Source: an uncultured Clostridia bacterium
GTDB taxonomy: Bacteria; Bacillota; Clostridia; Christensenellales; CAG-917
NCBI GenBank assembly: GCA_934277615.1
Contig: CAKQUV010000001.1
Location: 121,035-185,034 of the forward strand
Reading direction: 5' to 3'
Length of the DNA: 64,000 bases
How positions within the stretch are numbered: the stretch's first letter is position 1; every line of letters starts with the position of its first letter. The notes beneath the pieces were generated by a model. The model ran no database searches. It was not told the origin of the DNA and saw nothing but the letters and a program-made list of their open reading frames with translations. Shown in pieces: positions 9,975 to 63,336 of this stretch. A program made the translations under genes and the position numbers.

Positions 9975-10046
9975 AATTTCCTCTCTATCTTTTATTTGTT
10001 ATAAAATGCGAGCGCAAAATTATGCGCCCGCACACTAAAACCTACG

Positions 10047-43904: not shown

Positions 43905-43960
43905 AGCGCGCTTGACTGGGGGTCAAGAGGCCATGGGTTCAAGTCCCGTTACTCCGACCA
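43884..43960 (+). tRNA. tRNA-Pro (anticodon GGG)
   Basis: Hand-folded cloverleaf: acceptor cggggta/tactccg, D arm gcgc-agtttggta-gcgc, anticodon arm cttga-CUGGGGG-tcaag, T arm atggg-ttcaagt-cccgt. CCA is encoded. Length is 77 nt. Confidence 0.9.
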
Positions 43961-43969
43961 CAAACTTCG

Positions 43970-44002
43970 CTGAGTGCATACATTGTGTGCACTCAGTTTT
44001 TT
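43970..44002 (+). terminator. Intrinsic terminator after tRNA-Pro
   Basis: Stem ctgagtgca/tgcactcag, then tttttt. Confidence 0.8.
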
Positions 44003-44221
44003 ATATCCGTTCAACTTGCGCTTGCGCAAACGTTGAAACGGATATAAAAACAAGCACGCCTTGCGTGCCGAAGTTTGTGTAGTGGAACGAGCCATTAGGC
44101 GAAGTACCACAAAACTATCGTAGCAGAGTACCTCTGCCAAGTTTCTTGAATTGGAACGAACGAAGTGAGTACCACAAAACTTCATCGTTTCTTATCGAAT
44201 CTATCAAATGACGTTCAAAAA

Positions 44222-44250
44222 TTGATTTTTTGCAATCGTTGTGTTATTAT
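44222..44250 (+). promoter_or_regulatory. Possible sigma-A promoter for tRNA-Arg
   Basis: TTGATT, a 17-nt spacer, then TATTAT, ending 12 nt before the tRNA 5' end. Confidence 0.45.
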
Positions 44251-44262
44251 AAAAGCACTCAA

Positions 44263-44339
44263 GTTTCCGTAGCTCAGCAGGATAGAGCGTTCGCCTCCTA
44301 AGCGAAAGGCCGTGGGTTCGACTCCCGCCGGGAACACCA
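44263..44339 (+). tRNA. tRNA-Arg (anticodon CCU)
   Basis: Hand-folded cloverleaf: acceptor gtttccg/cgggaac, D arm gctc-agcaggata-gagc, anticodon arm ttcgc-CUCCUAA-gcgaa, T arm gtggg-ttcgact-cccgc. CCA is encoded. Length is 77 nt. Confidence 0.9.
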
Positions 44340-44726
44340 ATCACACCCCCACAGGGGTGTGTTTGTTTTTCTTGCGGTAGTTGTGCGCCTTGCGCACGTG
44401 CTTCGCACTCGACCCCACTTCCGTGGCTGACGCTTCGCTATTCCGTCATTCCATTCCTTACGACTCCCGCCGGGAACACCAATCACACCCCCACAGGGGT
44501 GTGTTTGTTTTTCTTGCGGTAGTTGTGCGCCTTGCGCACGTGCTTCGCACTCGACCCCACTTCCGTGGCTGACGCTTCGCTATTCCGTCATTCCATTCCT
44601 TACGACTCCCGCCGGGAACACCAATCACACCCCCACAGGGGTGTGTTTGTTTTTCTTGCGGTAGTTGTGTGCTTTGCGCACATGCTTTACACCCGCCCCC
44701 TCTTCCGTGGCTGACGCTTCGCTATT
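44319..44726 (+). repeat. Tandem 142-bp repeats, each starting with the last 21 nt of tRNA-Arg plus its terminator
   Basis: cgactcccgccgggaacacca occurs at 44319, 44461 and 44603. Each is followed by the hairpin cacaccccc-aca-ggggtgtg plus a T-run. Units 1 and 2 are identical. Unit 3 is diverged and is cut off at ~44726 by the stop codon of the first island gene. Confidence 0.9.
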
Positions 44727-47172
44727 CAACCTCATCCAACATTTTTGTAAGCTCTTCTATACAGTTGTCATACTCGTTATTGTCTGGATCAATTCTTTTT
44801 AACCAACTATACATTAATATGCCTTTTTCAATAGGAATACGATGTCTGTCAACGTAAGACAAAATGCGCCAAGCTTCGGCTACATCTTTTATGTCGTCGA
44901 TCATTTCCAACGTTATGTGTGCTTTTCCGTCTTCGGTTGGTGCCATTGTGGCGTTTAAACATTTCTCAATGATGGGAATCATTACGTTTATTGCTCTCAA
45001 ATAATGCTCTCGAATATCGTATAATTCCTCTTCTGTCATTTCGAGATCGTTTGAGTTTTTAGATTCAGCTCTGTCCATCTGTTTTTCTAACAGTGTGGAC
45101 GCAATCGCCATATTCCCCTTGTATATACTTCTTCTACATTCGGGGAAATCGGCTTTAGACAGAACCTTGTTTAGTAAATCGATAGATTCTTTATAACACG
45201 ATAGTTCTTCCTCGATTTTTCCTTGTGCATGATTTAATTTTGCTATGTGACTATAACAATTCGCTTTATCGCTATAATCTTCCACAGCATCAGACTGTTT
45301 CAATACTTGCTCAATGTAGCCAATCGCCTCGGAAAACCATGCTTTGGCATCTTCAAACTCATTTAGCTTTGTGCACTCAATCCCTGCTCTGAAGCAAACA
45401 ACAAAAGCCACTCTATAATACGGCAGTTTTTGCTTGTCTATTAAAAAACGCTTAATCAACTCCATTGCCTTGTCATAGTAATCTAAGCTTGCTTCGCCAT
45501 TATAATCTGCGATGGCGCCGAGATTACTATACATTATTGCCATTACATATGCATTATCTTCTTTATTTCGCACAGACTCTCCGTGCGAATGATTTTGTAT
45601 TGAGAAAGCCGATTCTATATAGTCTTTAGCATATTCGAGATCTCCTGCCTTTAAAAACAGCGTCCCCAGATTATTATAAACTTCTGCCAAATAATCCCCT
45701 GCCGACTCAATATGATTTGAATAGCAGCGTTCCATTAAATCTTTTGCTTTTCTATAAGATTTTGCGGCAGCGGACATCTCGTTTTCAGTACTATAGCAAA
45801 ATGCCAATTTGTTATAACACAGGTTATAATAATAAAGAGTTTTTCCATTCAATTTACTTTCATCTATTAACGATAAAAGTTTTATCGCCTCTTCAAGTTT
45901 TTCTATCGCTTGATTCAATCTATAAATCTCTATCAACAAACTTGCACAATTGCAAATAGATCCGACATAATCCAAATACTCATCTTGATTATCCGGTGAG
46001 GCTTTATCTTTTTTTATTTCTATAATCGTGTTTTGGTATGCAATTGCTTTATCGTAATCAATAGAGACGCCATGCCCCCTATGATAAATGTCAACAAGCT
46101 TTTCTATTGCAGGTAAATAATTATATTCCGAACACTTTGTTAATATCGTTATCCCTTTTTCCGTATTAACCTCTACGTCTATACCGAATAAATACGCCAA
46201 TCCAATAAGGTATTTATGTTCAGGTAAAAAGTCGTTGTTTTTTACATTTAAATAAGACAAGGCGTCTATCAGTGAACTGTCGAAAACAGGTTTGTCGTGA
46301 ACGTTTACCAATTCGGGAATATCATCAAACGCATCAAACACCGATTGTTTATTCGTTTCCACCAACTCTACCGGGAATATGTATTTACCTCTCGCTTTTG
46401 CAATAGGATACTCTGTGGTAATAATATAATTGAGTTCATTGACTACGTTTGGAGTGATCACCACGGAAAAAACATCGCATTTGTCGATCTCCTGCTCTAT
46501 TTCATAATTAAAGTTTTCTCCGGGCGTTAAAAATTCGTCATACCAAACCCCGACATCTTCAAGTTTATCGTTTTCATGCATCAACTTTATGAATTCATTG
46601 GCGTATTTTCTGTCTTTTTTTCTATAACTAACAAACACATGCGCATCGAATTCTGATTTTATTTGTTCGATTGTTTCATCTTCCAATAAAACAGATTTTA
46701 AAAATCTTTCCAGCTTCTTGGAAAATGGAATTGAAGTATTGTCCAAGTCAAATCTGGACATGAATTGGACATTGCCAAAAATCTTATTATATGATTCTAA
46801 AATATCTGTCTCTTGTAAAATCGGTAAAATCGGGATACGTTTTTCTCTTATAAATACAAATTCTTTAGAATTTATCAAATTGCTATCACTTAAAAATCTA
46901 TTTGTAATCGGAATCACAATTAGTTGCATTTGTCCCAACGTCAATTCCAAATCATCCTCTATATATTCGCTCGAATCCGGCTTATACCAAATAGAACAAT
47001 TTGCAACATCCAGAATATCCCTGCATATTTCGTCAAAAAACAATTTATAGTCTTCAGAGTGAGCGAAAAAATAAACCCTAGCCTTCCCCGTTGGCAAACT
47101 ATCCCCTCGAGTTTTGCATAATAATTGCATAATACTTAGCCCCTTTATCGTTAAATTAGCATAACGATTCAA
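44722..47172 (-). CDS. Tandem TIR-like domains fused to Sel1/TPR repeats (816 aa)
   Basis: The first TIR-like module is RVYFFAHSEDY...CSIWYKPD...LIVIPIT. The second is canonical: HVFVSYRKKDRKYANEF...VGVWYDEFLTPGENF...DVFSVVITPNVVNE. Sel1-like repeats follow (IYHRGHGVSIDYDKAIAY), then a long TPR-like region. The gene is AT-rich. An alternative start is at 47130. Confidence 0.75.
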   Translation of the reverse strand: MNRYANLTIKGLSIMQLLCKTRGDSLPTGKARVYFFAHSEDYKLFFDEICRDILDVANCSIWYKPDSSEYIEDDLELTLGQMQLIVIPITNRFLSDSNLINSKEFVFIREKRIPILPILQETDILESYNKIFGNVQFMSRFDLDNTSIPFSKKLERFLKSVLLEDETIEQIKSEFDAHVFVSYRKKDRKYANEFIKLMHENDKLEDVGVWYDEFLTPGENFNYEIEQEIDKCDVFSVVITPNVVNELNYIITTEYPIAKARGKYIFPVELVETNKQSVFDAFDDIPELVNVHDKPVFDSSLIDALSYLNVKNNDFLPEHKYLIGLAYLFGIDVEVNTEKGITILTKCSEYNYLPAIEKLVDIYHRGHGVSIDYDKAIAYQNTIIEIKKDKASPDNQDEYLDYVGSICNCASLLIEIYRLNQAIEKLEEAIKLLSLIDESKLNGKTLYYYNLCYNKLAFCYSTENEMSAAAKSYRKAKDLMERCYSNHIESAGDYLAEVYNNLGTLFLKAGDLEYAKDYIESAFSIQNHSHGESVRNKEDNAYVMAIMYSNLGAIADYNGEASLDYYDKAMELIKRFLIDKQKLPYYRVAFVVCFRAGIECTKLNEFEDAKAWFSEAIGYIEQVLKQSDAVEDYSDKANCYSHIAKLNHAQGKIEEELSCYKESIDLLNKVLSKADFPECRRSIYKGNMAIASTLLEKQMDRAESKNSNDLEMTEEELYDIREHYLRAINVMIPIIEKCLNATMAPTEDGKAHITLEMIDDIKDVAEAWRILSYVDRHRIPIEKGILMYSWLKRIDPDNNEYDNCIEELTKMLDEVE

Positions 47173-48283: not shown

Positions 48284-50866
48284 TTATTTCTTCCAGAATA
48301 CGCGCGCGACGTTTACGATATCATAATCGTTGTACGTTTCGTCAAGCATAGAAAACGGCACCAGACAATCATGTTCGTTTCTGGCTTTTCCCGCTTTTTT
48401 TGGCGCTTTACGACGCTCTTCAAAATCATCTTCGCTTTCGCCCTCTTGTCTTGAAGGCATTTTTTGATTGAACGTCCAGCCACCGGCAATATACGACCTA
48501 TTCCACCTCTCGTGCTCGAGCTCTGCCAGCAACCGCACCTCGTCGTAAGTATAAGCGCTCGTACAATAGCACTCCCTCATCGCCGCCATAACTTTCATAA
48601 ACAAGGACGCGGACTTGTTCGATTCTCTTTCTGCGAGAGTAACCTCTTTCCATTCCGTTCTCAAACACTCTTTGTCCTCGTTTTGCACAGCCGTATTGAA
48701 ATCGCGCAACAAAGTGTAATACCCACCGTTTTTATCCGGGGTTTCTCTGTTGGGAAAATACTGTTTCATTTCCGGAACTTGATTTTCGAGCTGTTCTCTT
48801 CTGAGGAGCACGTATGCGTGATTGTACTTCATCTGCTCGTCCTCGTCGATGATTTGATTGTACGAGTAAATCTCATCCCTGTTTCCGAAAACGATCACTT
48901 TCAAATTGCCGTATCGTTTGGCGTCGTCATCGCTCCAGTTGATTCTGTCGCGGTTTTTCTTATTGAGGATATTGATTGCAATCGTTTGCAACTTTGCAGG
49001 TCTTGCCGCATTGCGCAGATTGTTGAGTTCGTGTTTGATATCCGCAAGCAAGGCGTTTGCCATCTTGATATTATCCTCGTCTTTCCCGAGGGCAACTATT
49101 ATAAGGTTATATTCCTGCGAGCGCGAATCTGCGCCCGTTCTCGAATCCAGATAATCCAGATAATCCGAGCTGAAACACGACGCATTGTGCATAACCACCA
49201 CAGGCAACTTCATTTGATTTTCGATGTCCTCGAGCGTCGCCGCGCGATCTTTTTTGAAATCCGAGGAAAGATTCATCGTTTTGCCGACTAAGCTATGATA
49301 CGTCGTATCGATTTTCTCTCTACGTTTGTTCCTGATTTGTTCTTCAATCTCGTTTTGACTAAGAACGCCCTTGTCGTCGACGCACACGATCAACGGATGT
49401 TGCAATTCAAAAATACCGCTCACAGAACCTGCGTCTTTATCGAATATGTCGGCTCTGAATTGCGTCGGCATGTGGTAATCGGGCTGTTTGTTGTCTATTT
49501 TAGTCGACATAACATAGGATTGCAACATAGTCCTTTGGCCCGTCGCGCCAAAGCCGACAACCATGACTTTGTACGTCGATTCGCCCGTATCCTGAATCAA
49601 CGAATTCGCGTCCCACTCATTGTTTCTTGCCTCCGCAAACAGTTTTGCGGTTATGTCGGACTCGTTGACAATATGCAAGGAAAACTCATTCTCATTGACG
49701 ACGCCGCGAGGATTGCGCACTTCGATTGCTCCGTTTTCAAGCACGGACGCCTTCTCGCGATTTTTACGGTGAATTCGCGGATTTGCGGATTCTAAGCCGC
49801 TATCTACGCACTTTTTCTTGTAATTGTCGTAATACGTGTAGTTTATATCTCTGTTTGTAAGTATGTAGTAATCGACAAAAACAGGTTTCTTGTTGCATTC
49901 CACGATTTCTCGCGCGACGTTCTCGATTTCGTTAAATACGATTTCCGTATTCACGGTTTCTTCGCCGCTGAAATCCTCGTCGTTATGCATTGCAAAAATA
50001 TGGATTCTGCTGCTTTTTGCCTTGGCTTTGACAACGATTTTTTTGCCTTTTCGTTTATCTTTTTCCTCATCGTTTTGCGGCGGTTTTGTTTCAAAAAACA
50101 CGTTGTCTACATATAGTCCGAGCCTCTTGAGCATGGAAGATTCCTTATCGCCGGTTTTCTTTGAGTAAGACCAGAATATATATCCGTTGGACATAATCTC
50201 TCTGTGCAGCGGATTTTTACGGTCGAAAGACCCGATATCGTCGCCTGCAAAAATCACTTTACTTCTTCTAGGTTTTTCGGGTTTTTGAGCGTCTTTACCT
50301 GCGCCTTTGTCCTCTCGATATGCCTTTAGTGCCTTTTTGTAATTTTCCTTATCTTTGAACCTCTTTTCGTTGATGCTGTTTGCCAAAAGCAACGAATCCT
50401 GCGTTACGGACGTAAACAAATATATATCGGTATTCGTATCCGTTTTCAACCTCAAACGCAGGAAGAACAGCAACACGCCGCTGTACATCTCATAGCTGAT
50501 TCTTGTAAGGATGATACTGAAGAACACAAGCCCCGCAAGCGCCGAACTTCCAGAATACAGCCATTGCACCAGCACTCCGCCCACTTCTCCGGGGGATGAC
50601 AAGCCCTCGAATTCGAGTCCGCCGATGCTCGAATAAATGGAATAAAAGACCGTTGCAAGTCCGTCATCGAACGCGTCCGGTCTGCCCGCCGCAAAAACGG
50701 CAAATTTAACGCCAAAACTAAACGCAAACACAATAGCTATAAAAAACAACTCAACCGCAAACTTTGCGCCGGAAAATCTTTTCCTTGCCGCAATGTATGC
50801 AAACATAATCAAACCATACGCCGTCAATAAAGCTACTGCCCCTATAACTGCTCCGAGTGCCGCCAT
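48284..50866 (-). CDS. TM + Rossmann-like + C-terminal RyR-domain protein (860 aa)
   Basis: About 4 N-terminal hydrophobic helices. The glycine-rich motif is VMVVGFGATGQ. The C-terminus is LAELEHERWNRSYIAGGWTF...EHDCLVPFSMLDETYNDYDI, which fits the bacterial RyR-domain pattern EH-x-RW...GW...H-x-x-LVP(F/Y). It is a full-length paralog of 53320..55803. Confidence 0.65.
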   Translation of the reverse strand: MAALGAVIGAVALLTAYGLIMFAYIAARKRFSGAKFAVELFFIAIVFAFSFGVKFAVFAAGRPDAFDDGLATVFYSIYSSIGGLEFEGLSSPGEVGGVLVQWLYSGSSALAGLVFFSIILTRISYEMYSGVLLFFLRLRLKTDTNTDIYLFTSVTQDSLLLANSINEKRFKDKENYKKALKAYREDKGAGKDAQKPEKPRRSKVIFAGDDIGSFDRKNPLHREIMSNGYIFWSYSKKTGDKESSMLKRLGLYVDNVFFETKPPQNDEEKDKRKGKKIVVKAKAKSSRIHIFAMHNDEDFSGEETVNTEIVFNEIENVAREIVECNKKPVFVDYYILTNRDINYTYYDNYKKKCVDSGLESANPRIHRKNREKASVLENGAIEVRNPRGVVNENEFSLHIVNESDITAKLFAEARNNEWDANSLIQDTGESTYKVMVVGFGATGQRTMLQSYVMSTKIDNKQPDYHMPTQFRADIFDKDAGSVSGIFELQHPLIVCVDDKGVLSQNEIEEQIRNKRREKIDTTYHSLVGKTMNLSSDFKKDRAATLEDIENQMKLPVVVMHNASCFSSDYLDYLDSRTGADSRSQEYNLIIVALGKDEDNIKMANALLADIKHELNNLRNAARPAKLQTIAINILNKKNRDRINWSDDDAKRYGNLKVIVFGNRDEIYSYNQIIDEDEQMKYNHAYVLLRREQLENQVPEMKQYFPNRETPDKNGGYYTLLRDFNTAVQNEDKECLRTEWKEVTLAERESNKSASLFMKVMAAMRECYCTSAYTYDEVRLLAELEHERWNRSYIAGGWTFNQKMPSRQEGESEDDFEERRKAPKKAGKARNEHDCLVPFSMLDETYNDYDIVNVARVFWKK

Positions 50867-50942: not shown

Positions 50943-51467
50943 TCATTCCAATATCTTGTCGATAAGCCCGTACCCCAATGCTTCTTTTGCGCTCATCCAC
51001 TTATCTCTTTCGCAATCCGCATGCAGCGTCTCGAGCGATTTGTCCATGTTATCCGCCATAATGGTTTCCAATTCGTTTCTGGATTTCGCCATATCTTCCG
51101 CAATACGTTGCATTGCGGTTTGAGGACGTGGCACTCCTTGCCTAAGCTGCATAAGCGGCTGATGAATAAGCATTCTGCTATGCGGCAAGGCATATCTTTT
51201 GCCCTTCTCTCCGCACGAAAGCAAGAATGCGCCCATGGACGCAGCCATGCCGTAGCATACGGTGGAAACGGGTGCTTTGATGAGCTTTATCGTATCGTAG
51301 ATTGCCAATCCGTAAACTATGCTGCCGCCGTTTGAATTGATATACAAACTTATCTCTTTGTTTTCGTCCTGTCTGTTGAGCTCGAGCAACTGCAAAATGA
51401 CTTTCATTGCGGAATCTTCATCCACCGTTCCGTTCAATAGCACTATACGAGGGTTATTGTTTTTCAT
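50943..51467 (-). CDS. ClpP-family serine protease, N-terminally truncated, catalytic triad intact
   Basis: It aligns by eye to E. coli ClpP from ~residue 30 onward, using my recalled E. coli sequence: YINSNGGS, GMAASMGAFLL (Ser), MLIHQP (His), CERDKWMSAKEALGYGLID (Asp). It lacks the axial-loop segment that contains DIYSRLL. Confidence 0.85.
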   Translation of the reverse strand: MKNNNPRIVLLNGTVDEDSAMKVILQLLELNRQDENKEISLYINSNGGSIVYGLAIYDTIKLIKAPVSTVCYGMAASMGAFLLSCGEKGKRYALPHSRMLIHQPLMQLRQGVPRPQTAMQRIAEDMAKSRNELETIMADNMDKSLETLHADCERDKWMSAKEALGYGLIDKILE

Positions 51468-51482: not shown

Positions 51483-52031
51483 TCACTCGAGTATCTCGTC
51501 GACAATTCCGTATTCCAAAGCCTGTTGTGCGCTTAGGCTCACCCCGACTTCGCAATCTCGGTGTATTTTGTCAAAATCCGTATTCGTCTTTTGAGCAAGC
51601 ATATTCTCAAAAATCTCTCTTTCAAGCTTGACTTCTTTTGCCTCGATTGCAATCTCCGTCTCCTGATTGGCGCCGGATTGCAACATCCCGTACGGCTGCT
51701 CGAAAGAAATCTGACTATGTCTGAGCGCATATCTTTTTCCCTTGGCGCAACACGCAAGCAACAGCGCGCTATACCCGTCCGCCATGCCGACGCACGTCCC
51801 GGATATTGGCGCTTTTATGGTGTTCATCGTATCGATAATCGCCATCATATCCAAGTAACTTCCGCCGCTCGAGCCGATAAACAACTGAATATCTTCCTTC
51901 TCGCTTTTGGCATTGTAATCCATCATCTGAAAAATAATGCTCGCCGCCTTGTCCGAATTGACATATCCGCTCACGACGATAATACGGCTCTCCTCCAGCT
52001 CCTCACCAAGCGACCTAGCCTCTTTTGCCAT
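51483..52031 (-). CDS. ClpP-fold pseudoprotease (all three catalytic residues replaced)
   Basis: RBS aggagg plus M46 of the tracked ORF. In the same hand alignment to recalled E. coli ClpP, GMADGYSALLL puts Gly at the Ser position, ISFEQP puts Glu at the His position, and DCEVGVSLSA puts Gly at the Asp position. The stop lies 15 nt upstream of the active paralog. Confidence 0.75.
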   Translation of the reverse strand: MAKEARSLGEELEESRIIVVSGYVNSDKAASIIFQMMDYNAKSEKEDIQLFIGSSGGSYLDMMAIIDTMNTIKAPISGTCVGMADGYSALLLACCAKGKRYALRHSQISFEQPYGMLQSGANQETEIAIEAKEVKLEREIFENMLAQKTNTDFDKIHRDCEVGVSLSAQQALEYGIVDEILE

Positions 52032-52102: not shown

Positions 52103-53278
52103 TCAATTGTATACATATGGAAGAATTTCTTTTAGACTCTTCAATCTGCGGATAAAATGATGCCAAATTTTATCATTATAAAAATCTGTATTTTTAGGGT
52201 TGATACAAAGAGTTTCAACCATTGTTGTATAAATGAACTCATCATTAAACGAATTCCCTACATATAAAATGTCTTTTGGTGAAACATGTGTCGACTGAAT
52301 AATTTTGTTTACAAATCGCGCTTTCCCCTCAAAGTCATATGGCGTACCTATAATGCCATTTAACATTCCCTGATCATCAAAAGTAAATCGATTCGCTTTA
52401 ATCTCTGTAAAACAATCTACAAGTTCTTTCCCCAATACGCATTCCACATATTGTTTAATTGATCCAGATACATTGTATAATTTTATTCCCTTGGATTTTA
52501 ATTCCATTATCACTTCTCTGGCATCATCAACGAGTTGTGCTCTTTGAGCCACTTCTTTTATATGATGTTTGTTGCACCCCACTTTTATGAACATTTTTTC
52601 TGTTATTTCACACCATTCATCATGAGAAATTTCATTATTGCTGAATTGCTTGTGATATTTTTCGCATTCACTAACATCATAACCCAAGATAGTCCACATC
52701 AGTTCCCATGTATTAGAATCTACACGCGGTTTAGTAAGTGTTCCATCGAAATCAAATACCACTATCTTTTTATTAACATGTTGAGAAACCAATTCGCTAA
52801 ATATAAGTTCTATAACTTGGCTTTTATATTGAAACACATACGGAACCGGTGGCGAGCCAATAATTCTTTTCATTGCATCTTCTCCCCAAAGAGCAGATAC
52901 TATATCTTGGTTAACCATACCATTTGTTTCGTTTTCCCATGCAAAATCTGGAAAAATCACGGGAATAAACTTTACATTTTTATTTTTTAACACCTCATCC
53001 ATCTCAATCCTTGTAACCGAATTGAGATTTGGTGTGCCATTGACAATAAACCCCTCAAAAAAATTTTTTGTTAATAGCATAATGAAATTTTCTACATTAC
53101 CCAAATATTTTTGAGGATCTAGTAAAAAATTCCTCATTTCGCTCGCATAAATTTTTTCTGGAGAATAGTAAGTTGCACCTACTTCTTCACTTTTTTGACT
53201 CATCGCAACATAGATCTCATTTGCGATTTGAATTCCTGCAGATGAGCCTCCCCGATAGCAAATAAAATTTCTATACAT
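52103..53278 (-). CDS. TIR domain fused to HAD-superfamily (PSP-like) phosphatase
   Basis: N-terminus is MYRNFICYRGGSSAG...FIMLLTKNFFEG...RIEMDEVL (TIR-like). C-terminal HAD motifs are VVFDFDGTLTK (I), VSGS (II), K-x (III) and VGNSFNDE (IV). The gene is AT-rich. Confidence 0.75.
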   Translation of the reverse strand: MYRNFICYRGGSSAGIQIANEIYVAMSQKSEEVGATYYSPEKIYASEMRNFLLDPQKYLGNVENFIMLLTKNFFEGFIVNGTPNLNSVTRIEMDEVLKNKNVKFIPVIFPDFAWENETNGMVNQDIVSALWGEDAMKRIIGSPPVPYVFQYKSQVIELIFSELVSQHVNKKIVVFDFDGTLTKPRVDSNTWELMWTILGYDVSECEKYHKQFSNNEISHDEWCEITEKMFIKVGCNKHHIKEVAQRAQLVDDAREVIMELKSKGIKLYNVSGSIKQYVECVLGKELVDCFTEIKANRFTFDDQGMLNGIIGTPYDFEGKARFVNKIIQSTHVSPKDILYVGNSFNDEFIYTTMVETLCINPKNTDFYNDKIWHHFIRRLKSLKEILPYVYN

Positions 53279-53319
53279 TATCGTTTCCTCTTTGCCAATG
53301 GCGCACATGCTCTGTGCGC

Positions 53320-55803
53320 TTAAGCCTTTCTTTTGTGCGTTTTCTTCTTCTTGCCTGCGCTTTCGCCTTTATTCTCGGCGTTTTTAGCCTCTGCGTTTTG
53401 ATTTTCGGCGTTTTGGCTTTCTGCGCCTTTTTTCTCTGCTTCTATTTCCTTTTCGCTCTTCCTTTTCACGATCATGTACCCGTTTTGATTGAGTAACCAC
53501 ACCAAATCGTCCATAATCTGATAATCGTATTTGATAACGTCAGTCTTTTCTTCGCTGCAGTTATCTTTCTTAGCCATAATCTTGCGGAATTCCACAAGCC
53601 CCTCGAACGTGGTAACGTTTCCGTGCCGTCTGAGCGCGAGATTTTTGGAATCGCCATTCTCGATTTGCTCGATAGTTGACGGAATAACGCCGTTGGATAT
53701 CATATAAGCGTTCCATCTTTGATGTTCGAGGATGGCCATAGCCTGTCTTTTACTGCCATTCACAAAGTCTATGGTATATTTGACAGGGAGTTTGCCTTTG
53801 ATACCGTCTCTTTCCTTGCCGTAGACAATGGGATCGCCCTCTTCGTATTTCTTTTCATACTCGGCGCAAGTGTCTTTTTCGTCATTGGTTCTCGGTATAT
53901 AGTCATAGCCCAAAAGATTGAGCTTTTCTCTTATGCACATACACACGTACACGTTGTTATCTCGCTGTATCTGCGATTGCGCATACCAACTCTTAAGAGC
54001 GTCTCTCTTCACGTCCTCTTCGTATTCATACTTGGTATCGCCGACAAAAAGCCGTCCGTCCGTGGGCTTTTCCGCCTCGGAAGAGTTGATTGCCGCAACC
54101 ATCGCCGCCGCCTTTTCCTTGTCCGCCTCATACCATTTCTTTATGTAATCCAAAAGCGTCATTTTCCCGTCTTTGACGGCTTGTCTGTCTTTTGCGATGT
54201 CCACTTTCTTGTACTTCGCGTCCTCGAGTTGATACGTCATGTGTTTATCTCTTGCCATCATCTCCTGATTTTCATCCACGATTTGAGAGAGATTGTACAC
54301 AAGGTTCCTCTCTATGCCGAAAGTGATAAATTCTTCTTTTAGTTTTGCTTCTTTGAATGTCGTTATGGTGTCTTTGATACCGTTAGACAACTTGTCGCTT
54401 CTTATCTTCACAAACACTTTGGTCTTATCGTACAAGCCCCATTCTTTGAGTTTTGCGACGATTTTTTCTACCATATCAAGGTTTGCCATATCCGAGCCGA
54501 ACGCGATTATCACGTAATTGAACGCACCCTCAACGTCAATATCTCTCTTTACCGATTCATAAAATCCTGCATCGTTCACGTCGAGTTTTTGACGGAAAAC
54601 AATGTTTGCGGGCTTTGGAGGCAACGGCAAGTATTTGCTCTTATCTGCCCTATCGAGCACCTCGTTTTCATACCTGAAATATGTGTGATTGAGGTTTTTA
54701 TCGTTCTCTGCGTCGCGCTTGTCGTAAACGTAATAGTTCACGTCTTTTTGCACGAGTTTTCCGTCTTTTTTCGTCAAGAATTGATTGTTGGCAACAGACG
54801 TAAGGAACACTTGTTGGCTTGTTTTGCCAAAGCCGATCATCACCACGTTCATGTTCACGTCCGATCTTATCGTGGCGCTATCGTAGTCTATCTGCTCTTC
54901 CGTCATATACCTTGTAAGCGGATAATTGCTCACAAAATCTCTGGCAATCAACTTGTACTTGTTGATGTAATGCACGCATCCCTTAGTAAGTTCCACATAT
55001 TGCAGATACGACGTCATGTTTTCGGGCTCGCCGAACACGTAGACGTTGACGCCTCTTTTTTCGTCTATTACGAAATCCGACAATTTCATCTCTTCTATGG
55101 TTTTGCTCACCTGCTGCACGTATATGAGATTCTGAGATTCGTCCTCGGTGTTGATTATCACGTTGATTTGCTTTTTGGTGAAGTCCTTAAAAGTCTTTAT
55201 CAGCGTTTTGTCAAGGTCGTCGCCCTTCTCAAATTTGATATGAGCAACCTTTTGCGCATAGCAGAAGTCCAGTATCTCATCCGTGCTTTCCGAAAGCAGC
55301 ACCACGTCCGTTTTTTCGTCTGCGGACTTGATTATGTCAACGTTATGCTCGTTGTATCCGACTACCACAAAAACCTTTTTGCTTCCCTTCGTCATCTTGA
55401 CCTTTTCGGCAAAGTTGAACATTTTTCTGTGGAATATCGTAACGGCAAATAAGATTGCGTTGAGCGTTACGAGAACAAAGCAGATGTCCATCACCGCGCG
55501 ATAGAACACGTTGTCCGCCATAAGTGCGGACACCATACTGTAGTTATAGCTCAAGACGACCAGCTCGATAGTCGCTTTTACAGAGCGCAACAGCGACTCC
55601 CAAATCGACGCGCCCGAATAGGCGATGCCCATCCAATACATGGGTATTGCCACTATATAAATCAAAGCAAACTGACCTTTTTTAAATCCCTTCAAAAACT
55701 TCAGTTTTTCTTCTCTGTTCAACAAGAACAGCCTTACGATGACGCCGACGACGATTGCCAGCATACATACAAGACACAGTGCTATAACAACGTTCATAAA
55801 CAC
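53320..55803 (-). CDS. TM + Rossmann-like + C-terminal RyR-domain protein (827 aa), paralog of 48284..50866
   Basis: N-terminal TMs. VVMIGFGKTSQQ corresponds to VMVVGFGATGQR. FNYVIIAFGSDMANLDM corresponds to YNLIIVALGKDEDNIKM. The C-terminus is AILEHQRWNAYMISNG...HGNVTTFEGL...YDYQIMDDL, followed by a lysine/glutamate-rich tail. Confidence 0.65.
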   Translation of the reverse strand: MFMNVVIALCLVCMLAIVVGVIVRLFLLNREEKLKFLKGFKKGQFALIYIVAIPMYWMGIAYSGASIWESLLRSVKATIELVVLSYNYSMVSALMADNVFYRAVMDICFVLVTLNAILFAVTIFHRKMFNFAEKVKMTKGSKKVFVVVGYNEHNVDIIKSADEKTDVVLLSESTDEILDFCYAQKVAHIKFEKGDDLDKTLIKTFKDFTKKQINVIINTEDESQNLIYVQQVSKTIEEMKLSDFVIDEKRGVNVYVFGEPENMTSYLQYVELTKGCVHYINKYKLIARDFVSNYPLTRYMTEEQIDYDSATIRSDVNMNVVMIGFGKTSQQVFLTSVANNQFLTKKDGKLVQKDVNYYVYDKRDAENDKNLNHTYFRYENEVLDRADKSKYLPLPPKPANIVFRQKLDVNDAGFYESVKRDIDVEGAFNYVIIAFGSDMANLDMVEKIVAKLKEWGLYDKTKVFVKIRSDKLSNGIKDTITTFKEAKLKEEFITFGIERNLVYNLSQIVDENQEMMARDKHMTYQLEDAKYKKVDIAKDRQAVKDGKMTLLDYIKKWYEADKEKAAAMVAAINSSEAEKPTDGRLFVGDTKYEYEEDVKRDALKSWYAQSQIQRDNNVYVCMCIREKLNLLGYDYIPRTNDEKDTCAEYEKKYEEGDPIVYGKERDGIKGKLPVKYTIDFVNGSKRQAMAILEHQRWNAYMISNGVIPSTIEQIENGDSKNLALRRHGNVTTFEGLVEFRKIMAKKDNCSEEKTDVIKYDYQIMDDLVWLLNQNGYMIVKRKSEKEIEAEKKGAESQNAENQNAEAKNAENKGESAGKKKKTHKRKA

Positions 55804-58037: not shown

Positions 58038-58952
58038 TCAGTACAATTTATCGCATTCAACTGCAAGTTCTGAAATCGACTTTGCATTGCTGCCTCTGCC
58101 GACCGCTTTGAAAACCCATTCGCTGCCAACCCTTGTCGCAATCCCTACGACCAACGCCGTATTGCCGCCCATGTTTGCGTTTACCCTATATTCCACAAGC
58201 GGAGTGTGCGAAACGGGATCGTAAAGTTTTATGTACATATTCTTCACTTTGGACAAATTCTGCTTTCTTTTCACGCAGTCGTATATGTTGAGCACAAACA
58301 CGAGTTTATCTCTGTCCGTCGGCACTTTGTCCAAAAACACGTCTATGTTTTCATCGTCTACGTTTGGTCCTATATCGACGCCCGTAAGGTTGTCGCCGTG
58401 ATGCACCACGCATCCGCTCGGATGTTTCAATTTTCCGAAATACACGATGTCGAATCCTCTTTGCCCCATCACGAACACCGACGAATCGATATCCATATTC
58501 GCTCTTTCGGTTGCGCCGACGGGATCCCATCCCAATCCGACGACAATTCTCTTCAACGGCTTATTGTTGAATCTGATTTTAATCTCCTGCCCTTGCGACA
58601 ACCTGATTACGTCGCCGTCTTTATAGCCCGATACTCTCGTCGCGTCCGAATAGTCGATTTTCATATTCTTGCAATATATGCATTGAAAATCCGCGCCTCT
58701 GCCGCCCTGGCATTCTCTTGCCTTGCAGGCGCAGCCTCCGACAACGCGACTGCGGCACTTGTCGCACGGCAAAAGCGTTGAATTTGTCTCGAACTTTGCC
58801 TGCCTTATTTCGGAGGTCATAACTTTCGCCTCGTCGGCGGATATTTCCAAAAAGTTTACGACCTTCCACTCGCCGCCGAATTGTTTGATTTCCAAACCGA
58901 AATGCTTTCCCGTAAGCGAACATTGCGCTTTCAAAAACTTCGTGTTTTCCAT
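58038..58952 (-). CDS. Cys-rich zinc-ribbon N-terminus fused to a TerD-family domain
   Basis: The Cys cluster is CDKCRSRVVGGCACKARECQ...CIYC. The TerD core is VGLGWDP...MDIDSSVFVM...VVHHGDNLTG...DDENIDVFLDKVP...LVFVLNIY. Confidence 0.75.
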   Translation of the reverse strand: MENTKFLKAQCSLTGKHFGLEIKQFGGEWKVVNFLEISADEAKVMTSEIRQAKFETNSTLLPCDKCRSRVVGGCACKARECQGGRGADFQCIYCKNMKIDYSDATRVSGYKDGDVIRLSQGQEIKIRFNNKPLKRIVVGLGWDPVGATERANMDIDSSVFVMGQRGFDIVYFGKLKHPSGCVVHHGDNLTGVDIGPNVDDENIDVFLDKVPTDRDKLVFVLNIYDCVKRKQNLSKVKNMYIKLYDPVSHTPLVEYRVNANMGGNTALVVGIATRVGSEWVFKAVGRGSNAKSISELAVECDKLY

Positions 58953-58954
58953 TT

Positions 58955-60004
58955 TTAGACCTCCAAATATTTTTTATCTATCCCCTCGGACAACAGCAAC
59001 GCTTTTCTTTGCCGTATCTGCGCTTGCACAAGAAGTCGCAAAGGCGTTCTCCCCGAGCAAACCCAGGTCGCGCGTTTTGTCCACGTCCTGTTGTATGCCA
59101 TTTCTTTATCAGTGCAACCGAAATACTTGTCTATCGTCTTGTCCGCCGACGTTGCGTCCCACGTTACGTCAACGTGAAAATACTCTTTATTGTCAAACGA
59201 AACGACGTTCCAGGCGTGCGTACACAACTGACCTTTAACTTGTCCGTGCACGACGTAGCACGTAATTCCCTGCGTATCCAGCAATCTTTTGTACGCCTCC
59301 GCAAAGCCTTGGCACACGCACTTTTTATTGACAAGCGCGCCGTATGCGCTTTGTTTGTACCCTTTATCCACGGGATTAAGTTTCTTCCCTCCCGTGTACC
59401 AGTATTCCACCGTCTTGGCAAGATAGTTGTGCGCGACGTACGCTTTTATCTCGGGCGTCATGCTTTTTGAAAAGATTGCGCTTGCGACCTCTTTCAGTTT
59501 GTCGTTCAATTCTCTTTTAAGCATATCCGAGAGCACTTTGCCGATTCTGTATTCAAATTTGAAAACGGCAAATTTGATTTTGTAAGTTTTCCAGGTATAC
59601 GGCTGATACGACACGATTTGCAGATTTGAATAAAACGCCTTATTCGCGACAAAGTCCGAATACAACGCTTTATAATCCAAATCAACCCCGGGTTTTGGAA
59701 AAACAACCAATCGTTTTTGAAATTGTTCCACGGCGTTTATCATAGCGTCCTCGGCTTGATATCCGTCGCTAACGTTCACGATATCCTGCCTTTTGACTTC
59801 CGTGTTTGTGTATTTAAAATCAAAAACGACTTTCCCTTCAACCACTTTCGTTTTCTGTTCGGCAATATAAACGCCTATCCCGGGATCTTTCGCTACCGCC
59901 TGCGCTATGACGGCGGCAGGGGACGTTCCTCCCTCATATTCGATGTGGAGTTGAAAGTCGTATATCCCGTCTATAAATGCGTCTATATTGTTTACCGTGA
60001 TCAT
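58955..60004 (-). CDS. Transglutaminase-like cysteine protease-fold protein
   Basis: The start was moved to M62 (MITVNN) at 60004, 2 nt after the kinase stop. The Cys-His-Asp core is KKCVCQGFAEAYKRLL...CTHAWNVVSF...YFHVDVTWD. Confidence 0.75.
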   Translation of the reverse strand: MITVNNIDAFIDGIYDFQLHIEYEGGTSPAAVIAQAVAKDPGIGVYIAEQKTKVVEGKVVFDFKYTNTEVKRQDIVNVSDGYQAEDAMINAVEQFQKRLVVFPKPGVDLDYKALYSDFVANKAFYSNLQIVSYQPYTWKTYKIKFAVFKFEYRIGKVLSDMLKRELNDKLKEVASAIFSKSMTPEIKAYVAHNYLAKTVEYWYTGGKKLNPVDKGYKQSAYGALVNKKCVCQGFAEAYKRLLDTQGITCYVVHGQVKGQLCTHAWNVVSFDNKEYFHVDVTWDATSADKTIDKYFGCTDKEMAYNRTWTKRATWVCSGRTPLRLLVQAQIRQRKALLLSEGIDKKYLEV

Positions 60005-60006
60005 TT

Positions 60007-61449
60007 TTATTTCTTCTTTGCGTATCCGAACATTACGAGTTGGTGTATCAACACAAATTGATTTGTGCCGTCTTTTCTCATTAAAACGTAGCCTTTTCTG
60101 CCGTTTTTCTGATGTTTTGCAATGCCTGCGTACCCGTCGCTTTTCGCTTTTTCGCCGTCTATACAATACCCTGCGTCCGTATCCCAAACTTCGTTCGACA
60201 AAACAAACGCTGCGGTTGTCGATTCTTTTTTCTTTTCATCCGCGCTCGACGGAGCGACAACCCAGCCAAGAATTTTCAGCGTATTTATGGAGAACACGTT
60301 GCTCGTGCCGTCCGCTCTATAGAATTTATAACAATTCACGCCCTTTCTGTTGATTCTTTTCGATGACGCAAATCCGCTTTCTCTGAGCTTTGCGATATCG
60401 AATTTGCATTTGTGCTCTTCCCACGGCTCGCAATAGCCTTTCGGCACTTCTGTATCTGAATCTCTCGTCGTCGCGCTCGGCTTTATCGGGGATACCGCCG
60501 TCATTCCTTCAATAACGACGCCTTGTCCTTCGTCGAAAGGAAGAACGCGCTTGCTTTTCAGCACGTCCAGCACCTCCTGAGCGGAAATTCTCTTTTCGGG
60601 ATCGGCATACAGCATATTCGCAATCAAGCGTTGCATATATTCGTCTTTTATCTTTTTGGATATCACAAGCTTTGCGTCCGAAACCAACGCCTCTCCGCAA
60701 TACACCACTTTTCCCTCGTCCGCTTTGGCTTTCAACTTGTCGCTAAGCCCCGTGATTTTGGGGAATTCGCCTTTTGTCAGATAGTTATAAAAGACGATAC
60801 CCAGCGAAAACACGTCGGATTTTGTGGACAATTTCGCCATAGCGTCCTCTTCGCATTCGCTGATAAGGCACCAGGTGAGCTCCGGCGACATATATAGTTG
60901 ATCTCCGCCCAAATCTTTTTCTCTCACGCTGTTTGCAAAATAGCTCTTATCGAAGTCGATGATTTTTGCAACCACTTTCCCCGACGAATTTCTTGCGGCG
61001 AGGATATTTGTGCGTTTTAAGTCGCTATGCACGATGTTTTTTCCGTGGATATCCTTGATGGCTTTTGCCGCCGTCATCATCACGAAATTCAACTCGTCGC
61101 CCGATAGCTCCATTATCTTTTCGTCCTCTATGAGGTCGTTGATAAACTCGGTGGCTTCTATAAAGTTGATATCGTCCACAAACCATTTCGTCGGCAAAAT
61201 GATGTTTCCGCCCTCGCACGCAATCGTCGAAAGAGCCTCGTTTATGGCGGATCTGTATTTTACAAAGTCGTTGAACTCGGCGTTTAGTCTTGCAAAAAGT
61301 CTGTCGCTCGTCGCCGCGTTTTTTCTGGGCTTTTTGTATTCGCCGTAGCGTTTGAGAAAGTATTTTTTGCTTCCCTTTGTCGCCAAAGCCGTAAAGCCGA
61401 CGTTCGATACCTTCCAATCCCCTATCAGTTCATATCCCCCGACATTCAT
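60007..61449 (-). CDS. Ser/Thr protein kinase with two C-terminal ~60-aa repeats
   Basis: Motifs are YFLKRY (catalytic Lys region), IVHSDLKRTNIL (HxDLKxxN), IIDFDKS (DFG variant) and YMSPE (APE). The C-terminal repeats are GYC...RKG...Y..R.DGT...F....L...G(W/Y). Confidence 0.8.
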   Translation of the reverse strand: MNVGGYELIGDWKVSNVGFTALATKGSKKYFLKRYGEYKKPRKNAATSDRLFARLNAEFNDFVKYRSAINEALSTIACEGGNIILPTKWFVDDINFIEATEFINDLIEDEKIMELSGDELNFVMMTAAKAIKDIHGKNIVHSDLKRTNILAARNSSGKVVAKIIDFDKSYFANSVREKDLGGDQLYMSPELTWCLISECEEDAMAKLSTKSDVFSLGIVFYNYLTKGEFPKITGLSDKLKAKADEGKVVYCGEALVSDAKLVISKKIKDEYMQRLIANMLYADPEKRISAQEVLDVLKSKRVLPFDEGQGVVIEGMTAVSPIKPSATTRDSDTEVPKGYCEPWEEHKCKFDIAKLRESGFASSKRINRKGVNCYKFYRADGTSNVFSINTLKILGWVVAPSSADEKKKESTTAAFVLSNEVWDTDAGYCIDGEKAKSDGYAGIAKHQKNGRKGYVLMRKDGTNQFVLIHQLVMFGYAKKK

Positions 61450-63209
61450 ACTCTTGCCCCCTTAAAATACTTCTTATAACTCCTCTCGTATTCGGCATAT
61501 ATTTCATCTCTTACGCCGATTTTTTTCAATATCTGCTCGTTTTCTTCTTCGAGTGCGGCAAGTTTTTCTTCTTTCTCTTCACACTCTTGCGCGTCGAGCA
61601 AATCTCTTTTTCCTTCCCAAATCTTTCGTATAATCTCGTTGCGCCTCGTTCTCCAAAACCGCATCGTGCATTGCGCTATCATATCGCGTTGCTGCCTGCC
61701 GCAAAGATCGTTCTGCTCTTCGTCTATGGCGCTAAGCTCGTCCAAAATTGCTCGAAACTCTTCCTTCTTTTCGGCAAGTTTTCTCATCTGCTTTGCGCTA
61801 TGCGTTTCGATATTGAAAGAAACGTACTGCCCCGACAATTCGCCTCGCAAAAGCATATCGAACAGCGTTTCGTTATCTTCCTCGTTCACCGACTCGCTCA
61901 AGAACTGCTTTTTATTGTCATCGAACCAATCCATGGTTTTCTTTTTCGCAATCTCGACTTTCGCTTCCAGCGCGTGCAGTTTTTCAAGAAACTCTTCTTT
62001 CGCTTTGATAAACGGCTCGTATTGCGCCTCTCTCATCAATCCGAAAACATACTGAAACACCCTATTTGAATTTATCCAATCCGTCGCGTTTTCAAGAATG
62101 ATATCGTCTTTCTTTTCCTCTATTTTTTGCGCCTCGTCCGAATAATCCGCCTCGAATATGTCCGACAGCCTGCTTACGATGTGTTTTTTTATATAATACA
62201 GCCTGTCTTTCACGGCTCTTTTGAAAACGTCGTAATCCTCTTTGCCCTTGAAATCGTTGTATCCGAACATTTGCAACGCCATAGAATTGCTGTCGTCGTG
62301 CCTTCCGATGCGCTTGTATTCTTCCTCAAAGTTTAATGCTGCCTCCTCTGTCGAGTTTGCCTTGTAAAACGCTTCGAGAAAGGTCATTTCCATCTCGAGA
62401 GGCGAGGCATAACACGAGCATTTGTAACAGCCGTCCGTTGCGACGAACACTACGCACGGTTTGTCGAAACTCGCGTATCTCGATTCAATCTTAAAATCGC
62501 GCGACAAAGTTATGAGGTTATACATCGTTTCGGCGTCTTCGTGATCGTCCGTTATTTGAGCAAGCCCGTCCTTATTCCACATATACGCGCGAGAGTCGCC
62601 CGCCCACAAAAACACGGCTCTGACGGATTTCTTTTCTTCTTTGACGAGCGCGATTTGCAGCGTCGTCGGAAGCAGATATGCCCCGGTAACGCTCGTTTCT
62701 ATTTCCAAATCTATTTTCTTCGCTATTTTTTCAAGTTTATAGCGGATTTCTATTGCAAGTTTTTGCGCGTATTCGCTCAACACGTCGTCAATTTTATCCT
62801 GATTGTTTTGTATATCCTCAAACAGTTTTTCTTTGTCGAATGCTTTGACATACTTGATTTCGTACAAGGCGATAGCCGCCACAAGGCGAGAAGCAAAATA
62901 TCCGCTCGTCCTTATTGCGCTTTCGCATTCGAAATAATAATCTTTCATCTCGAAAATTTCAGAAAAGCCGTTCACGACGTAATCGACAAAATCCTCGTCC
63001 ACATCCCCTTTATACACGTCGCCAAAGACAAGTTCATAGAACTTGTCTTTGTCTACGATTCCCCTATCTGCCTTCTTGTGCGGGTATCCGCCTCTTCCTC
63101 CCAATCCGTCCGCGACGAGCAAAATCCCATCCTTCGCATACGGATGCGCGTCCTCCCCGATATAAACTTTGGGTTCCCCTTTTTGTATTTTTTGATTGTA
63201 AACAATCAT
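61446..63209 (-). CDS. PP2C-family phosphatase with long helical C-terminal extension
   Basis: RBS gggggaaaaggg plus M9 at 63209. Motifs are LLVADGLGGRGG, WAGDSRAY, ITDDHE and VATDGC. It overlaps the kinase start by 4 nt. Confidence 0.8.
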   Translation of the reverse strand: MIVYNQKIQKGEPKVYIGEDAHPYAKDGILLVADGLGGRGGYPHKKADRGIVDKDKFYELVFGDVYKGDVDEDFVDYVVNGFSEIFEMKDYYFECESAIRTSGYFASRLVAAIALYEIKYVKAFDKEKLFEDIQNNQDKIDDVLSEYAQKLAIEIRYKLEKIAKKIDLEIETSVTGAYLLPTTLQIALVKEEKKSVRAVFLWAGDSRAYMWNKDGLAQITDDHEDAETMYNLITLSRDFKIESRYASFDKPCVVFVATDGCYKCSCYASPLEMEMTFLEAFYKANSTEEAALNFEEEYKRIGRHDDSNSMALQMFGYNDFKGKEDYDVFKRAVKDRLYYIKKHIVSRLSDIFEADYSDEAQKIEEKKDDIILENATDWINSNRVFQYVFGLMREAQYEPFIKAKEEFLEKLHALEAKVEIAKKKTMDWFDDNKKQFLSESVNEEDNETLFDMLLRGELSGQYVSFNIETHSAKQMRKLAEKKEEFRAILDELSAIDEEQNDLCGRQQRDMIAQCTMRFWRTRRNEIIRKIWEGKRDLLDAQECEEKEEKLAALEEENEQILKKIGVRDEIYAEYERSYKKYFKGARV

Positions 63210-63225
63210 CCCTTTTCCCCCTAGG

Positions 63226-63263
63226 AAAAACAAACGGATTGCCCCAAGGGGAGCAATCCGTTT
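63226..63263 (-). terminator. Intrinsic terminator-like hairpin between the vWA and PP2C genes
   Basis: The minus strand reads caaacggattgctccccttggggcaatccgtttgttttt, with an ~11-bp stem and a T-run. It ends ~15 nt before the PP2C RBS. Confidence 0.5.
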
Positions 63264-63336
63264 GCGTCAACAGGCACAAAGCCTTTTTGTAACAATTCTT
63301 TGCTCCGTAAGTTATCTCGGACAAATAAATGTCGCA

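Follow-up and report, generated by a model that had tools for sequence, protein, structure and literature searches.

The window analysed here is a stretch of 64,000 nucleotides (nt) from the genome of an uncultured Clostridia bacterium (Christensenellales, CAG-917; contig CAKQUV010000001.1, positions 121,035 to 185,034). On its minus strand, at positions 52103 to 53278, it carries a complete gene for a protein of 391 amino acids (aa), in which an N-terminal TIR domain is fused to a C-terminal phosphatase-like HAD domain. This gene, referred to below as the TIR-HAD gene, had been noticed from the DNA letters alone, and the original prediction was followed up by profile searches, structure modelling and comparison of homologues. 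The enclosing open reading frame extends from 52103 to 53308. The start codon was set to the ATG at 53278, because 30 full-length homologues open with MYRNF (MYRNFICYRGG) and a GAGG sequence is located 8 nt upstream. Homologue starts and GAGG agree, and the gene boundaries proposed originally are exact. A short hairpin lies further upstream, in the 41-nt spacer past the stop codon of the upstream gene. It is not followed by a T-run and was not called in a terminator scan.

The base composition of the TIR-HAD gene is foreign to its surroundings. Its GC content is 33.0% compared to 46.6% for the whole window, and just 0.24% of windows of equal size have a GC content as low. At third codon positions the GC content is 27%, compared to 52-60% in the neighbouring genes. 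These values agree with the earlier suggestion that this AT-rich gene was acquired in a cassette-like manner.

The TIR and HAD domains

The N-terminal part of the protein was not recognised by sequence models. A Pfam scan of aa 1-170 returned no family even at E ≤ 10, and none of the curated TIR models (Pfam TIR, TIR_2, ThsB_TIR, CAP12-PCTIR_TIR, DUF4062 and SEFIR) matched this region. A sequence-profile search of the PDB gave nothing over the N-terminal domain, and PADLOC had no match for the protein. The region was modelled by AlphaFold2 with a predicted local distance difference test score (pLDDT) of 87 and a predicted template modelling score (pTM) of 0.84. In the model, five parallel strands form a flavodoxin-like alpha/beta fold, and the helices follow the order of TIR domains. 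When it was compared with the PDB by Foldseek, all 15 top matches were TIR domains, the best being that of SARM1 (6o0v; E = 1.2e-5, template modelling (TM) score 0.72). Further matches included MyD88, SPARTA TIR-APAZ, TIR-STING, IL-1RAPL2, RRS1, SEFIR and TIR-SAVED. Non-TIR flavodoxin-like folds (Ras, ArsH, azoreductase) were listed with E > 0.02 and lower probability.

The TIR sequence of SARM1 (residues 560-702) was checked against the PDB and then aligned with the family profile of the TIR domain by hhalign. The alignment is colinear over 138 columns and places Glu92 on Glu642 of SARM1. The paired segments are FICYRGGS and FISYRRNS, NFIMLLTKNFF and NFVLVLSPGAL, SVTRIE and DWV-HKE, and FIPVIFPDFAW and IVPIIDGFEW. 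As an alignment to a single SARM1 sequence it is statistically weak (E 0.015-0.053, probability ~1%) and serves solely to place Glu92; the domain is called TIR because of the Foldseek match, not because of this alignment. Glu92, Tyr8 and Arg9 are invariant in all homologues aligned (alignments A1, A2 and A4), including the copies fused to STAND proteins. Similarity to SARM1 comprises the F-I-x-Y-R motif of strand betaA, the position of the catalytic glutamate and the P-I/V-I-x-x-F-x-W segment, whereas W638 of SARM1 is replaced by an invariant Ser87. The TIR domain proposed originally is thus supported by the structural model, by the TIR-only top matches and by a conserved catalytic Glu position, and not replaced by a non-TIR fold without the glutamate. 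On the basis of the model, this domain is a divergent TIR family that is recognised by structure alone and missed by sequence models.

A search with the profile of this TIR domain returned 25 proteins, mostly fragments, and did not reach any canonical TIR domain. It missed ~78 known full-length proteins and was not used as a census. The same TIR domain (57-64% identity) is found at the head of NB-ARC-TPR STAND proteins of 832-837 aa from rumen Bacilli and Clostridia (loci L015, L017, L018, L019 and L024). Its N-terminal place in these STAND proteins is the classical effector position.

The C-terminal half was identified as a HAD domain by Pfam and NCBIfam. Residues 171-346 matched PF00702 (Hydrolase; 3e-13) as well as PF12710 (HAD) and PF06888 (Put_Phosphatase), and the NCBIfam model TIGR01488 (HAD-SF-IB) scored 55.9 bits, above its cutoff of 45. 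A PDB profile search with the HAD half led to phosphoserine phosphatases (PSP). By Foldseek it matched the PSP of M. jannaschii and H. pylori (TM 0.77-0.81) and cytosolic 5'-nucleotidase III (cN-III; E 3e-11). The full-length model (pLDDT 86) contains a four-helix cap between motifs I and II, with helices spanning residues 190-262. Motifs I to III are canonical (D176-F-D178-G-T180, S271-G-S and K319). In motif IV, Asn342 stands where canonical HADs carry the Mg-binding Asp, and D346 is kept. Four HAD motifs and a PSP-like character had been read from the sequence originally. Motifs I to III stand, the fourth has Asn342 at the place of its first Asp, and the likeness to PSP holds for subfamily and fold but not for function. 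A true phosphoserine phosphatase is ruled out by the score of the SerB equivalog model TIGR00338 (51.4 bits, cutoff 144.15) and by PSP Glu20, which is unmatched in the alignment and not conserved. The two domains are connected by a linker of ~5 aa. A hidden helix-turn-helix (HTH) between them was considered and rejected, since the models show just the last TIR helix (149-163).

A HAD module with many partner domains

An exhaustive phmmer search with the HAD half, carried out over clusters at 50% identity, gave 956 matches, of which 194 had E < 1e-30. Architectures were derived from the 150 best representatives. The HAD domain is nearly always C-terminal within its proteins. To define partner classes, the N-terminal extensions were clustered and Pfam was run on representatives. 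The N-terminal domain is DUF4062 (TIR-like) in 27 of the 150, PNP_UDP (PNP; PF01048) in 19, SIR2_2 (SIR2; PF13289) in nine, calcineurin-like in six, NTase-conflict in five, cytidine deaminase in three, HD-CE in two and a Rossmann oxidoreductase in one. At least 26 representatives of ~360 aa have an HTH only. Altogether, at least 10 unrelated nucleotide- or NAD-targeting domains, AAA among them, occur as fusion partners of the HAD module. DUF4062 has been described as a TIR-like NADase (bioRxiv 10.64898/2026.05.01.722283). In most classes a XRE-type HTH is located between effector and HAD module, as in the fused calcineurin-like-HTH-HAD class (P0173), whereas the TIR-HAD protein has none. Several relatives match PF05822 (UMPH-1) above cutoff. 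The partner domains match PADLOC models for PN-superfamily and calcineurin-like effectors of CBASS and for SIR2 of the ThsA/Dsr/LmuA type. In the CBASS and ThsA-type systems, domains of these subfamilies are tethered to small-molecule sensor domains.

Conservation was counted in an alignment of 151 rows, consisting of the 150 representatives and the query. In motif I the nucleophile D176 is present in 149 rows and D178 in 140. Ser271 of motif II is found in all 151 rows and Lys319 of motif III in 149. In motif IV, N342 is present in 150 rows, the remaining row has a gap and Asp never occurs, and both N345 and D346 are present in 151, so that the family signature reads GNSxND. The cap contains three conserved tryptophans (W191 in 151 rows, W195 and W222 in 150 each). 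W191, W195, W222, S271, K319, N342 and D346 are thus conserved to ~100%, irrespective of the partner. The TIR-HAD protein shares all features of the family: a C-terminal HAD with GNSxND, the cap motifs TWExxW and (T/S)H.EWC, and a nucleotide- or NAD-targeting domain ahead of it. As the pocket is invariant whatever the partner, one common ligand is implied. Both the aromatic-rich cap and the likeness to cN-III hint at a nucleotide as this ligand. In nine of the 150 representatives the Asp+2 residue is changed to Gly (DFGGT), and this occurs in the deaminase, PNP, SIR2, HD-CE and HTH-only classes (P0147, P0160, P0167, P0180, P0208, P0210, P0221, P0223 and P0261). Catalytic turnover is therefore not universally required.

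PADLOC contains a single-gene phage-defence candidate, PDC-S34 (PDLC05002), to which five relatives (P0079, P0175, P0103, P0263 and P0111) showed weak matches over the HAD region (E 1e-6 to 7e-4). At E ≤ 0.01 no such match was seen for the window protein. The HTH-HAD relative P0103 (L030-L033, 8896-13089) is located near an integrase and two adjacent proteins of 919 and 886 aa. The 919-aa protein gave a weak adenosine-deaminase match. From this match and the protein sizes we suspect that the pair is RADAR-like.

Distribution and gene neighbourhood

The full-length TIR-HAD architecture forms ~78 clusters at 90% identity, which are 38-91% identical to the query and all stem from metagenomes and metagenome-assembled genomes (MAGs). 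At 50% clustering two representatives remain. An exact-sequence look-up of the window protein among contigs gave no record. The species-representative genomes that carry it are those of uncultured Clostridia sampled from buffalo, reindeer, yak and rabbit (rumen, caecum and gut). The fusion is rare and occurs in rumen and gut Firmicutes. One homologue bears the NCBI name "HAD-IB family phosphatase". In full-text literature searches, neither a TIR-HAD fusion nor the effector-HTH-HAD family was found to be described, although subscription-only papers were unsearchable and a prior mention is not fully excludable. HAD fusions are not mentioned in the modularity-network and DUF4062 papers, and the fusion is not covered by PADLOC-DB. 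The original prediction knew of no such fusion among described TIR defence systems, and it is indeed neither common nor characterised.

The gene context of TIR-HAD is not conserved. Neighbours are unrelated across eight contexts, and five of the eight contain TIR, AbiLi/KwaB-like or similar genes. The gene was found among glycoside hydrolases (L004), polysaccharide biosynthesis genes (L007) and housekeeping genes (L008 and L010), and, in L013, next to gyrBA, after which AbiLi and a KwaB-like gene are located. In L001 a TIR_2 gene is located 2 bp upstream. In L014, from a reindeer Clostridia MAG, a CAP12/Pycsar-type TIR protein is encoded beside a TIR-HAD copy (10001-11172) that is frameshifted (195 aa and remainder). 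The sole partial recurrence concerns L001-L003, where a kinase, a transglutaminase-like protein, TerD and a large membrane protein are encoded ahead of TIR-HAD and a TIR-TPR homologue behind it. In this region TIR-HAD is 72% identical to the window protein, compared to 37-57% for the backbone proteins. The recurrence fits a shared insertion hotspot better than an operon. Operon coupling to the 827-aa membrane protein was rejected, because it recurs in L001 alone and with another gene intervening, and coupling to ClpP, because ClpP is absent from every other context examined.

Two of these loci contain further genes of interest. In L001 (11333-13148) the TIR-HAD gene is followed by genes for a DUF5919 protein and an Inositol_P (inositol-monophosphatase-family) protein; three radical-SAM/SPASM genes and another TIR protein are encoded further on. 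In L007, genes for TIR_2 (442 aa), a 215-aa protein, His_Phos_1 and NUDIX are arranged like an operon (1-2994), 5 kb from the TIR-HAD homologue. This set may be a separate system of a TIR and NAD-product-processing enzymes.

Table 1. Features of the TIR-HAD gene and of its surroundings (positions in the window)
Feature	Positions	Strand	Remarks
TIR-HAD gene, complete	52103-53278	-	391 aa and stop codon (52103-52105)
TIR domain	52784-53278	-	aa 1-165; SARM1-like TIR fold, undetected by Pfam
Glu92 codon (GAG)	53003-53005	-	predicted TIR catalytic glutamate, aligned with SARM1 Glu642
HAD domain	52106-52768	-	aa 171-391; HAD-IB, C1 helical cap, PSP/cN-III-like
HAD motif I	52745-52753	-	D176 (nucleophile), F, D178 (Asp+2 general acid/base); sequence reading
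HAD motif IV	52241-52258	-	G341-N342-S-F-N345-D346; sequence reading
GAGG	53287-53290	-	Shine-Dalgarno-like, 8 nt 5' of ATG 53278; direct sequence reading
Hairpin GCGCACA-GAGCA-TGTGCGC	53301-53319	-	short; direct sequence reading
ClpP paralogue	50943-51467	-	
Second ClpP paralogue	51483-52031	-	starts at ATG 52031, strong AGGAGG
Large membrane protein	48284-50866	-	860 aa
Large membrane protein	53320-55803	-	827 aa
TIR_2-TPR protein	44722-47172	-	816 aa; GC 35%
Gene cluster	58038-63987	-	vWA, 595-aa protein, Ser/Thr kinase, transglutaminase-like, TerD, then BspA-type leucine-rich repeat protein
tRNA-Pro	43884-43960		
tRNA-Arg	44263-44339		
142-nt repeat	44319-44744		three copies
187-nt repeat	43493-43904		two copies and a partial copy

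Within the window, the two adjacent ClpP paralogues are located directly downstream of the TIR-HAD gene (Table 1). The two large membrane proteins that flank the block of TIR-HAD and ClpP genes are very distant paralogues with a common C-terminal RyR-like EH(E/Q)RWN segment, and in L001 the TIR-HAD region is preceded by a homologue of the 827-aa protein with 37% identity. The TIR_2-TPR gene is the other low-GC segment of the window and probably another acquired defence gene in its own right; in L001 a homologue of its product with 41% identity was found downstream of TIR-HAD. The gene cluster at 58038-63987, for which synteny was seen in L001-L003, is similar to TerY-P/Ter-like clusters for stress or defence. 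The minus-strand gene array from 63987 to 44722 ends at the two tRNA genes, both of which lie within tandem repeats. The 142-nt repeat begins inside the 3' end of tRNA-Arg, and the 187-nt repeat carries the 5' part of tRNA-Pro. By its appearance, the region from 43493 to 44744 could be the boundary of an island or a set of repeated att-like tRNA fragments.

Possible roles of the HAD module

We tentatively favour a reading, still short of being probable, in which TIR-HAD is a horizontally acquired stand-alone conflict gene, with a NAD+-depleting TIR effector gated by a HAD module that senses a ligand and sets the threshold. The TIR domain would be a catalytically competent, SARM1-like NAD+ glycohydrolase in which Glu92 is equivalent to SARM1 Glu642. 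The HAD domain would be an interchangeable partner module used throughout its family, not a tailoring enzyme for the TIR product. Its active site and Trp-rich cap would serve to bind a single phosphorylated small molecule common to the family and, in the normal case, to remove its phosphate. This molecule would most likely be a metabolite of the nucleotide monophosphate type that rises upon infection. As long as the ligand is at its basal level it would be turned over by the HAD module and the TIR domain would stay off. Once the HAD module is saturated, with the cap closed or the aspartyl-phosphate populated, the change would be relayed to the TIR domain. The TIR domain would then self-associate, as TIR NADases require, and deplete NAD+, and both phage replication and host growth would be halted. 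Threshold setting of this kind has been described for Metis, where the HAD protein MisB dephosphorylates the trigger m6dAMP, sets the threshold of a NAD+-cleaving effector and prevents autoimmunity (bioRxiv 10.1101/2025.11.05.686725).

The place of the HAD module in the protein bears on this proposal. The same TIR domain occupies the N-terminal effector position in STAND proteins, and the HAD module therefore fills the place of a sensor or switch in the fusion. Where effectors of the same subfamilies occur in other proteins, NB-ARC-TPR, SLOG or SAVED is found at this position, and the 391-aa protein contains no other candidate sensor. It is conceivable, if rather doubtful, that the HAD module represents immune sensing of a new kind, either as an enzyme that senses small molecules or as an aspartyl-phosphate switch, and gates at least 10 effector types. 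Such a sensor would respond to the amount of a phosphorylated nucleotide derived from infection and would be mechanistically akin to the receiver domains of response regulators; TIR-HAD would be its most compact form, without HTH.

Several observations weigh against the favoured reading. The support for a defence role comes from gene context and domain identity. No relatives were found in viral contigs, in the phage collection, where a weak gph was the sole match, or on plasmids, which neither supports nor refutes such a role. The interdomain geometry is uncertain (full-length pTM 0.59), and structural coupling of the two domains is not demonstrable from the model. We know of no HAD domain with independent sensor-type behaviour. 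The catalytic residues of the HAD domain are intact in the window protein, and HTH-HAD-AAA forms as well as stand-alone HAD proteins (~225 aa) exist, which suit an effector role equally well or better. The other defence HADs tested have been described as effector or co-effector, namely in Chp (PMC12715507) and PUA-Cal-HAD (10.64898/2026.01.15.699771).

The last points lead to a dual effector, which is possible but on the whole unlikely. Here, the HAD domain would dephosphorylate ATP, dNTPs, nucleoside monophosphates or NAD precursors such as nicotinamide mononucleotide beside the TIR NADase, so that NAD+ and nucleotide pools collapse jointly and NAD+ resynthesis is blocked. The sensing step would then depend on something else: the HTH in relatives, oligomerisation or the binding of a phage protein. 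A block of NAD+ resynthesis would rationalise the pairing with a NADase. Nucleotide phosphatase activity has been assigned to all experimentally studied defence HADs: that of Chp dephosphorylates ATP, dATP and IMP (PMC12715507), and that of PUA-Cal-HAD forms dADP from dATP, acting in a cascade together with calcineurin-CE (10.64898/2026.01.15.699771). DS-9 is a metallophosphatase paired with a HAD, and the calcineurin-like-HTH-HAD class P0173 unites such domains in one protein. The near-invariant catalytic motifs, the cN-III structural neighbour, the relatives above the UMPH-1 cutoff and the forms that carry no other effector domain (stand-alone HAD and HTH-HAD-AAA) also point in this direction. 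However, the change of Asp+2 to Gly in nine of 150 representatives across classes is hard to square with a high-flux phosphatase, and motif IV has Asn in place of the Mg-binding Asp throughout. Two toxic activities without a recognisable sensor in 391 aa would leave control unexplained, and the HAD module sits where NB-ARC-TPR, SLOG and SAVED-type sensors sit with the same effector subfamilies.

The original prediction offered another function, in which a phosphorylated product that the TIR domain makes from NAD(P) is trimmed or inactivated by the HAD domain fused to it. Candidates for this product would be 2'-phospho-ADP-ribose from NADP+, a pRib-AMP-type molecule or a signalling nucleotide. 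TIR domains make phosphorylated ADP-ribose derivatives, fusions of two enzymes often mark consecutive steps, and the TIR_2 gene beside His_Phos_1 and NUDIX in L007 is a pairing of TIR and product processing nearby. Yet the same invariant pocket also occurs in fusions with PNP, deaminase, HD-CE, calcineurin-like, NTase and AAA domains, at least 10 unrelated partners in all. The products of these partners are chemically unrelated to those of TIR domains, and trimming is disfavoured for this reason; the ligand is probably independent of the product of the partner. No conserved downstream signal receptor was found beside the gene in the contexts examined. We consider product trimming improbable. 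A non-immune salvage enzyme is less probable still. In that case a TIR-like nucleotide N-glycosidase, similar to DNPH1 or deoxyribosyltransferase, would be combined with a HAD acting on the sugar phosphate or nucleotide. The TIR fold is common to DNPH1 and NDT, DNPH1 was a weak Foldseek match (rank 50, E 0.086), and some copies are located among metabolic genes. The best structural and motif similarity, however, is to NADase TIRs and not to DNPH1, and the same TIR domain heads STAND NTPases. The sporadic distribution, the foreign GC content, the frameshifted copy in L014 and the Abi and TIR genes among the neighbours speak against a salvage enzyme as well, as do partner domains of the family that match CBASS and Thoeris effector models.

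The comparison with known systems places the TIR-HAD protein beside, but outside, each of them. Its TIR domain has the fold of SARM1 and of the bacterial TIR NADases (TIR-STING, TIR-SAVED, SPARTA TIR-APAZ and TIR-NLR/STAND), but it is fused directly to a HAD phosphatase, whereas those TIR domains have SAVED, STING, APAZ, SAM-ARM or NB-ARC as partners. It differs from TIR-STAND proteins (TIR-NB-ARC-TPR) by having a HAD in place of the NTPase and repeat sensor and does not belong to them. With Metis (MisA and MisB), PUA-Cal-HAD and DS-9 it shares the pairing of a C1-capped HAD with an effector that destroys NAD+ or nucleotides, as predicted here for the TIR domain. According to the published description, Metis has its HAD in a protein of its own, in which motif IV reads G204-D205...D210 and motifs I and II are 115 aa apart; the TIR-HAD protein has GNSxND, a spacing of 95 aa and a TIR effector. 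No PUA or metallophosphatase gene is located in the window neighbourhood or in the eight homologous contexts, and the protein is not a member of Metis or PUA-Cal-HAD. In Chp (HAD-4TM-CARF, type III CRISPR) a HAD phosphatase is likewise fused with another immune module, but there the HAD acts as effector, sensing is done by CARF and the protein is bound to the membrane, whereas TIR-HAD has neither transmembrane segment nor CARF and brings its own TIR effector. Thoeris (ThsB TIR and ThsA SIR2-SLOG) shares the TIR-based NAD chemistry, and the SIR2 partners of sister proteins match ThsA-type models. TIR-HAD, by contrast, is a single-gene unit with variable neighbours and no adjoining ThsA-like receptor, and PADLOC found no ThsA or ThsB in the protein or its neighbours, which places it outside Thoeris. 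With SerB and cN-III (HAD-IB/IE) the HAD domain shares the core, the four-helix C1 cap and canonical motifs I to III; it differs in motif IV, in the three invariant cap tryptophans and in the missing PSP Glu20. Taken together, we infer that TIR-HAD acts in the manner of abortive-infection effectors of the TIR NADase type, outside Thoeris, TIR-STAND, Metis, Chp and SerB.

TIR NADases are central to bacterial, plant and animal immunity, and how each of them is switched on is a key question. What is new here is the partner module attached to a putative TIR immune effector, and it points to a sizeable uncharacterised modular family. In ~200 clusters at 50% identity, one conserved HAD module is combined with most known nucleotide- and NAD-targeting effector domains. 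If the favoured reading is true, a hidden SARM1-like TIR family missed by sequence models would be revealed. It would also provide a single-gene system of 391 aa to ask for the role of HAD phosphatases in immunity, to which the Metis and PUA-Cal-HAD preprints, dealing with the same system, assigned opposite roles (10.1101/2025.11.05.686725; 10.64898/2026.01.15.699771). The identity of the HAD ligand could then define a new infection signal or a new route of nucleotide depletion.

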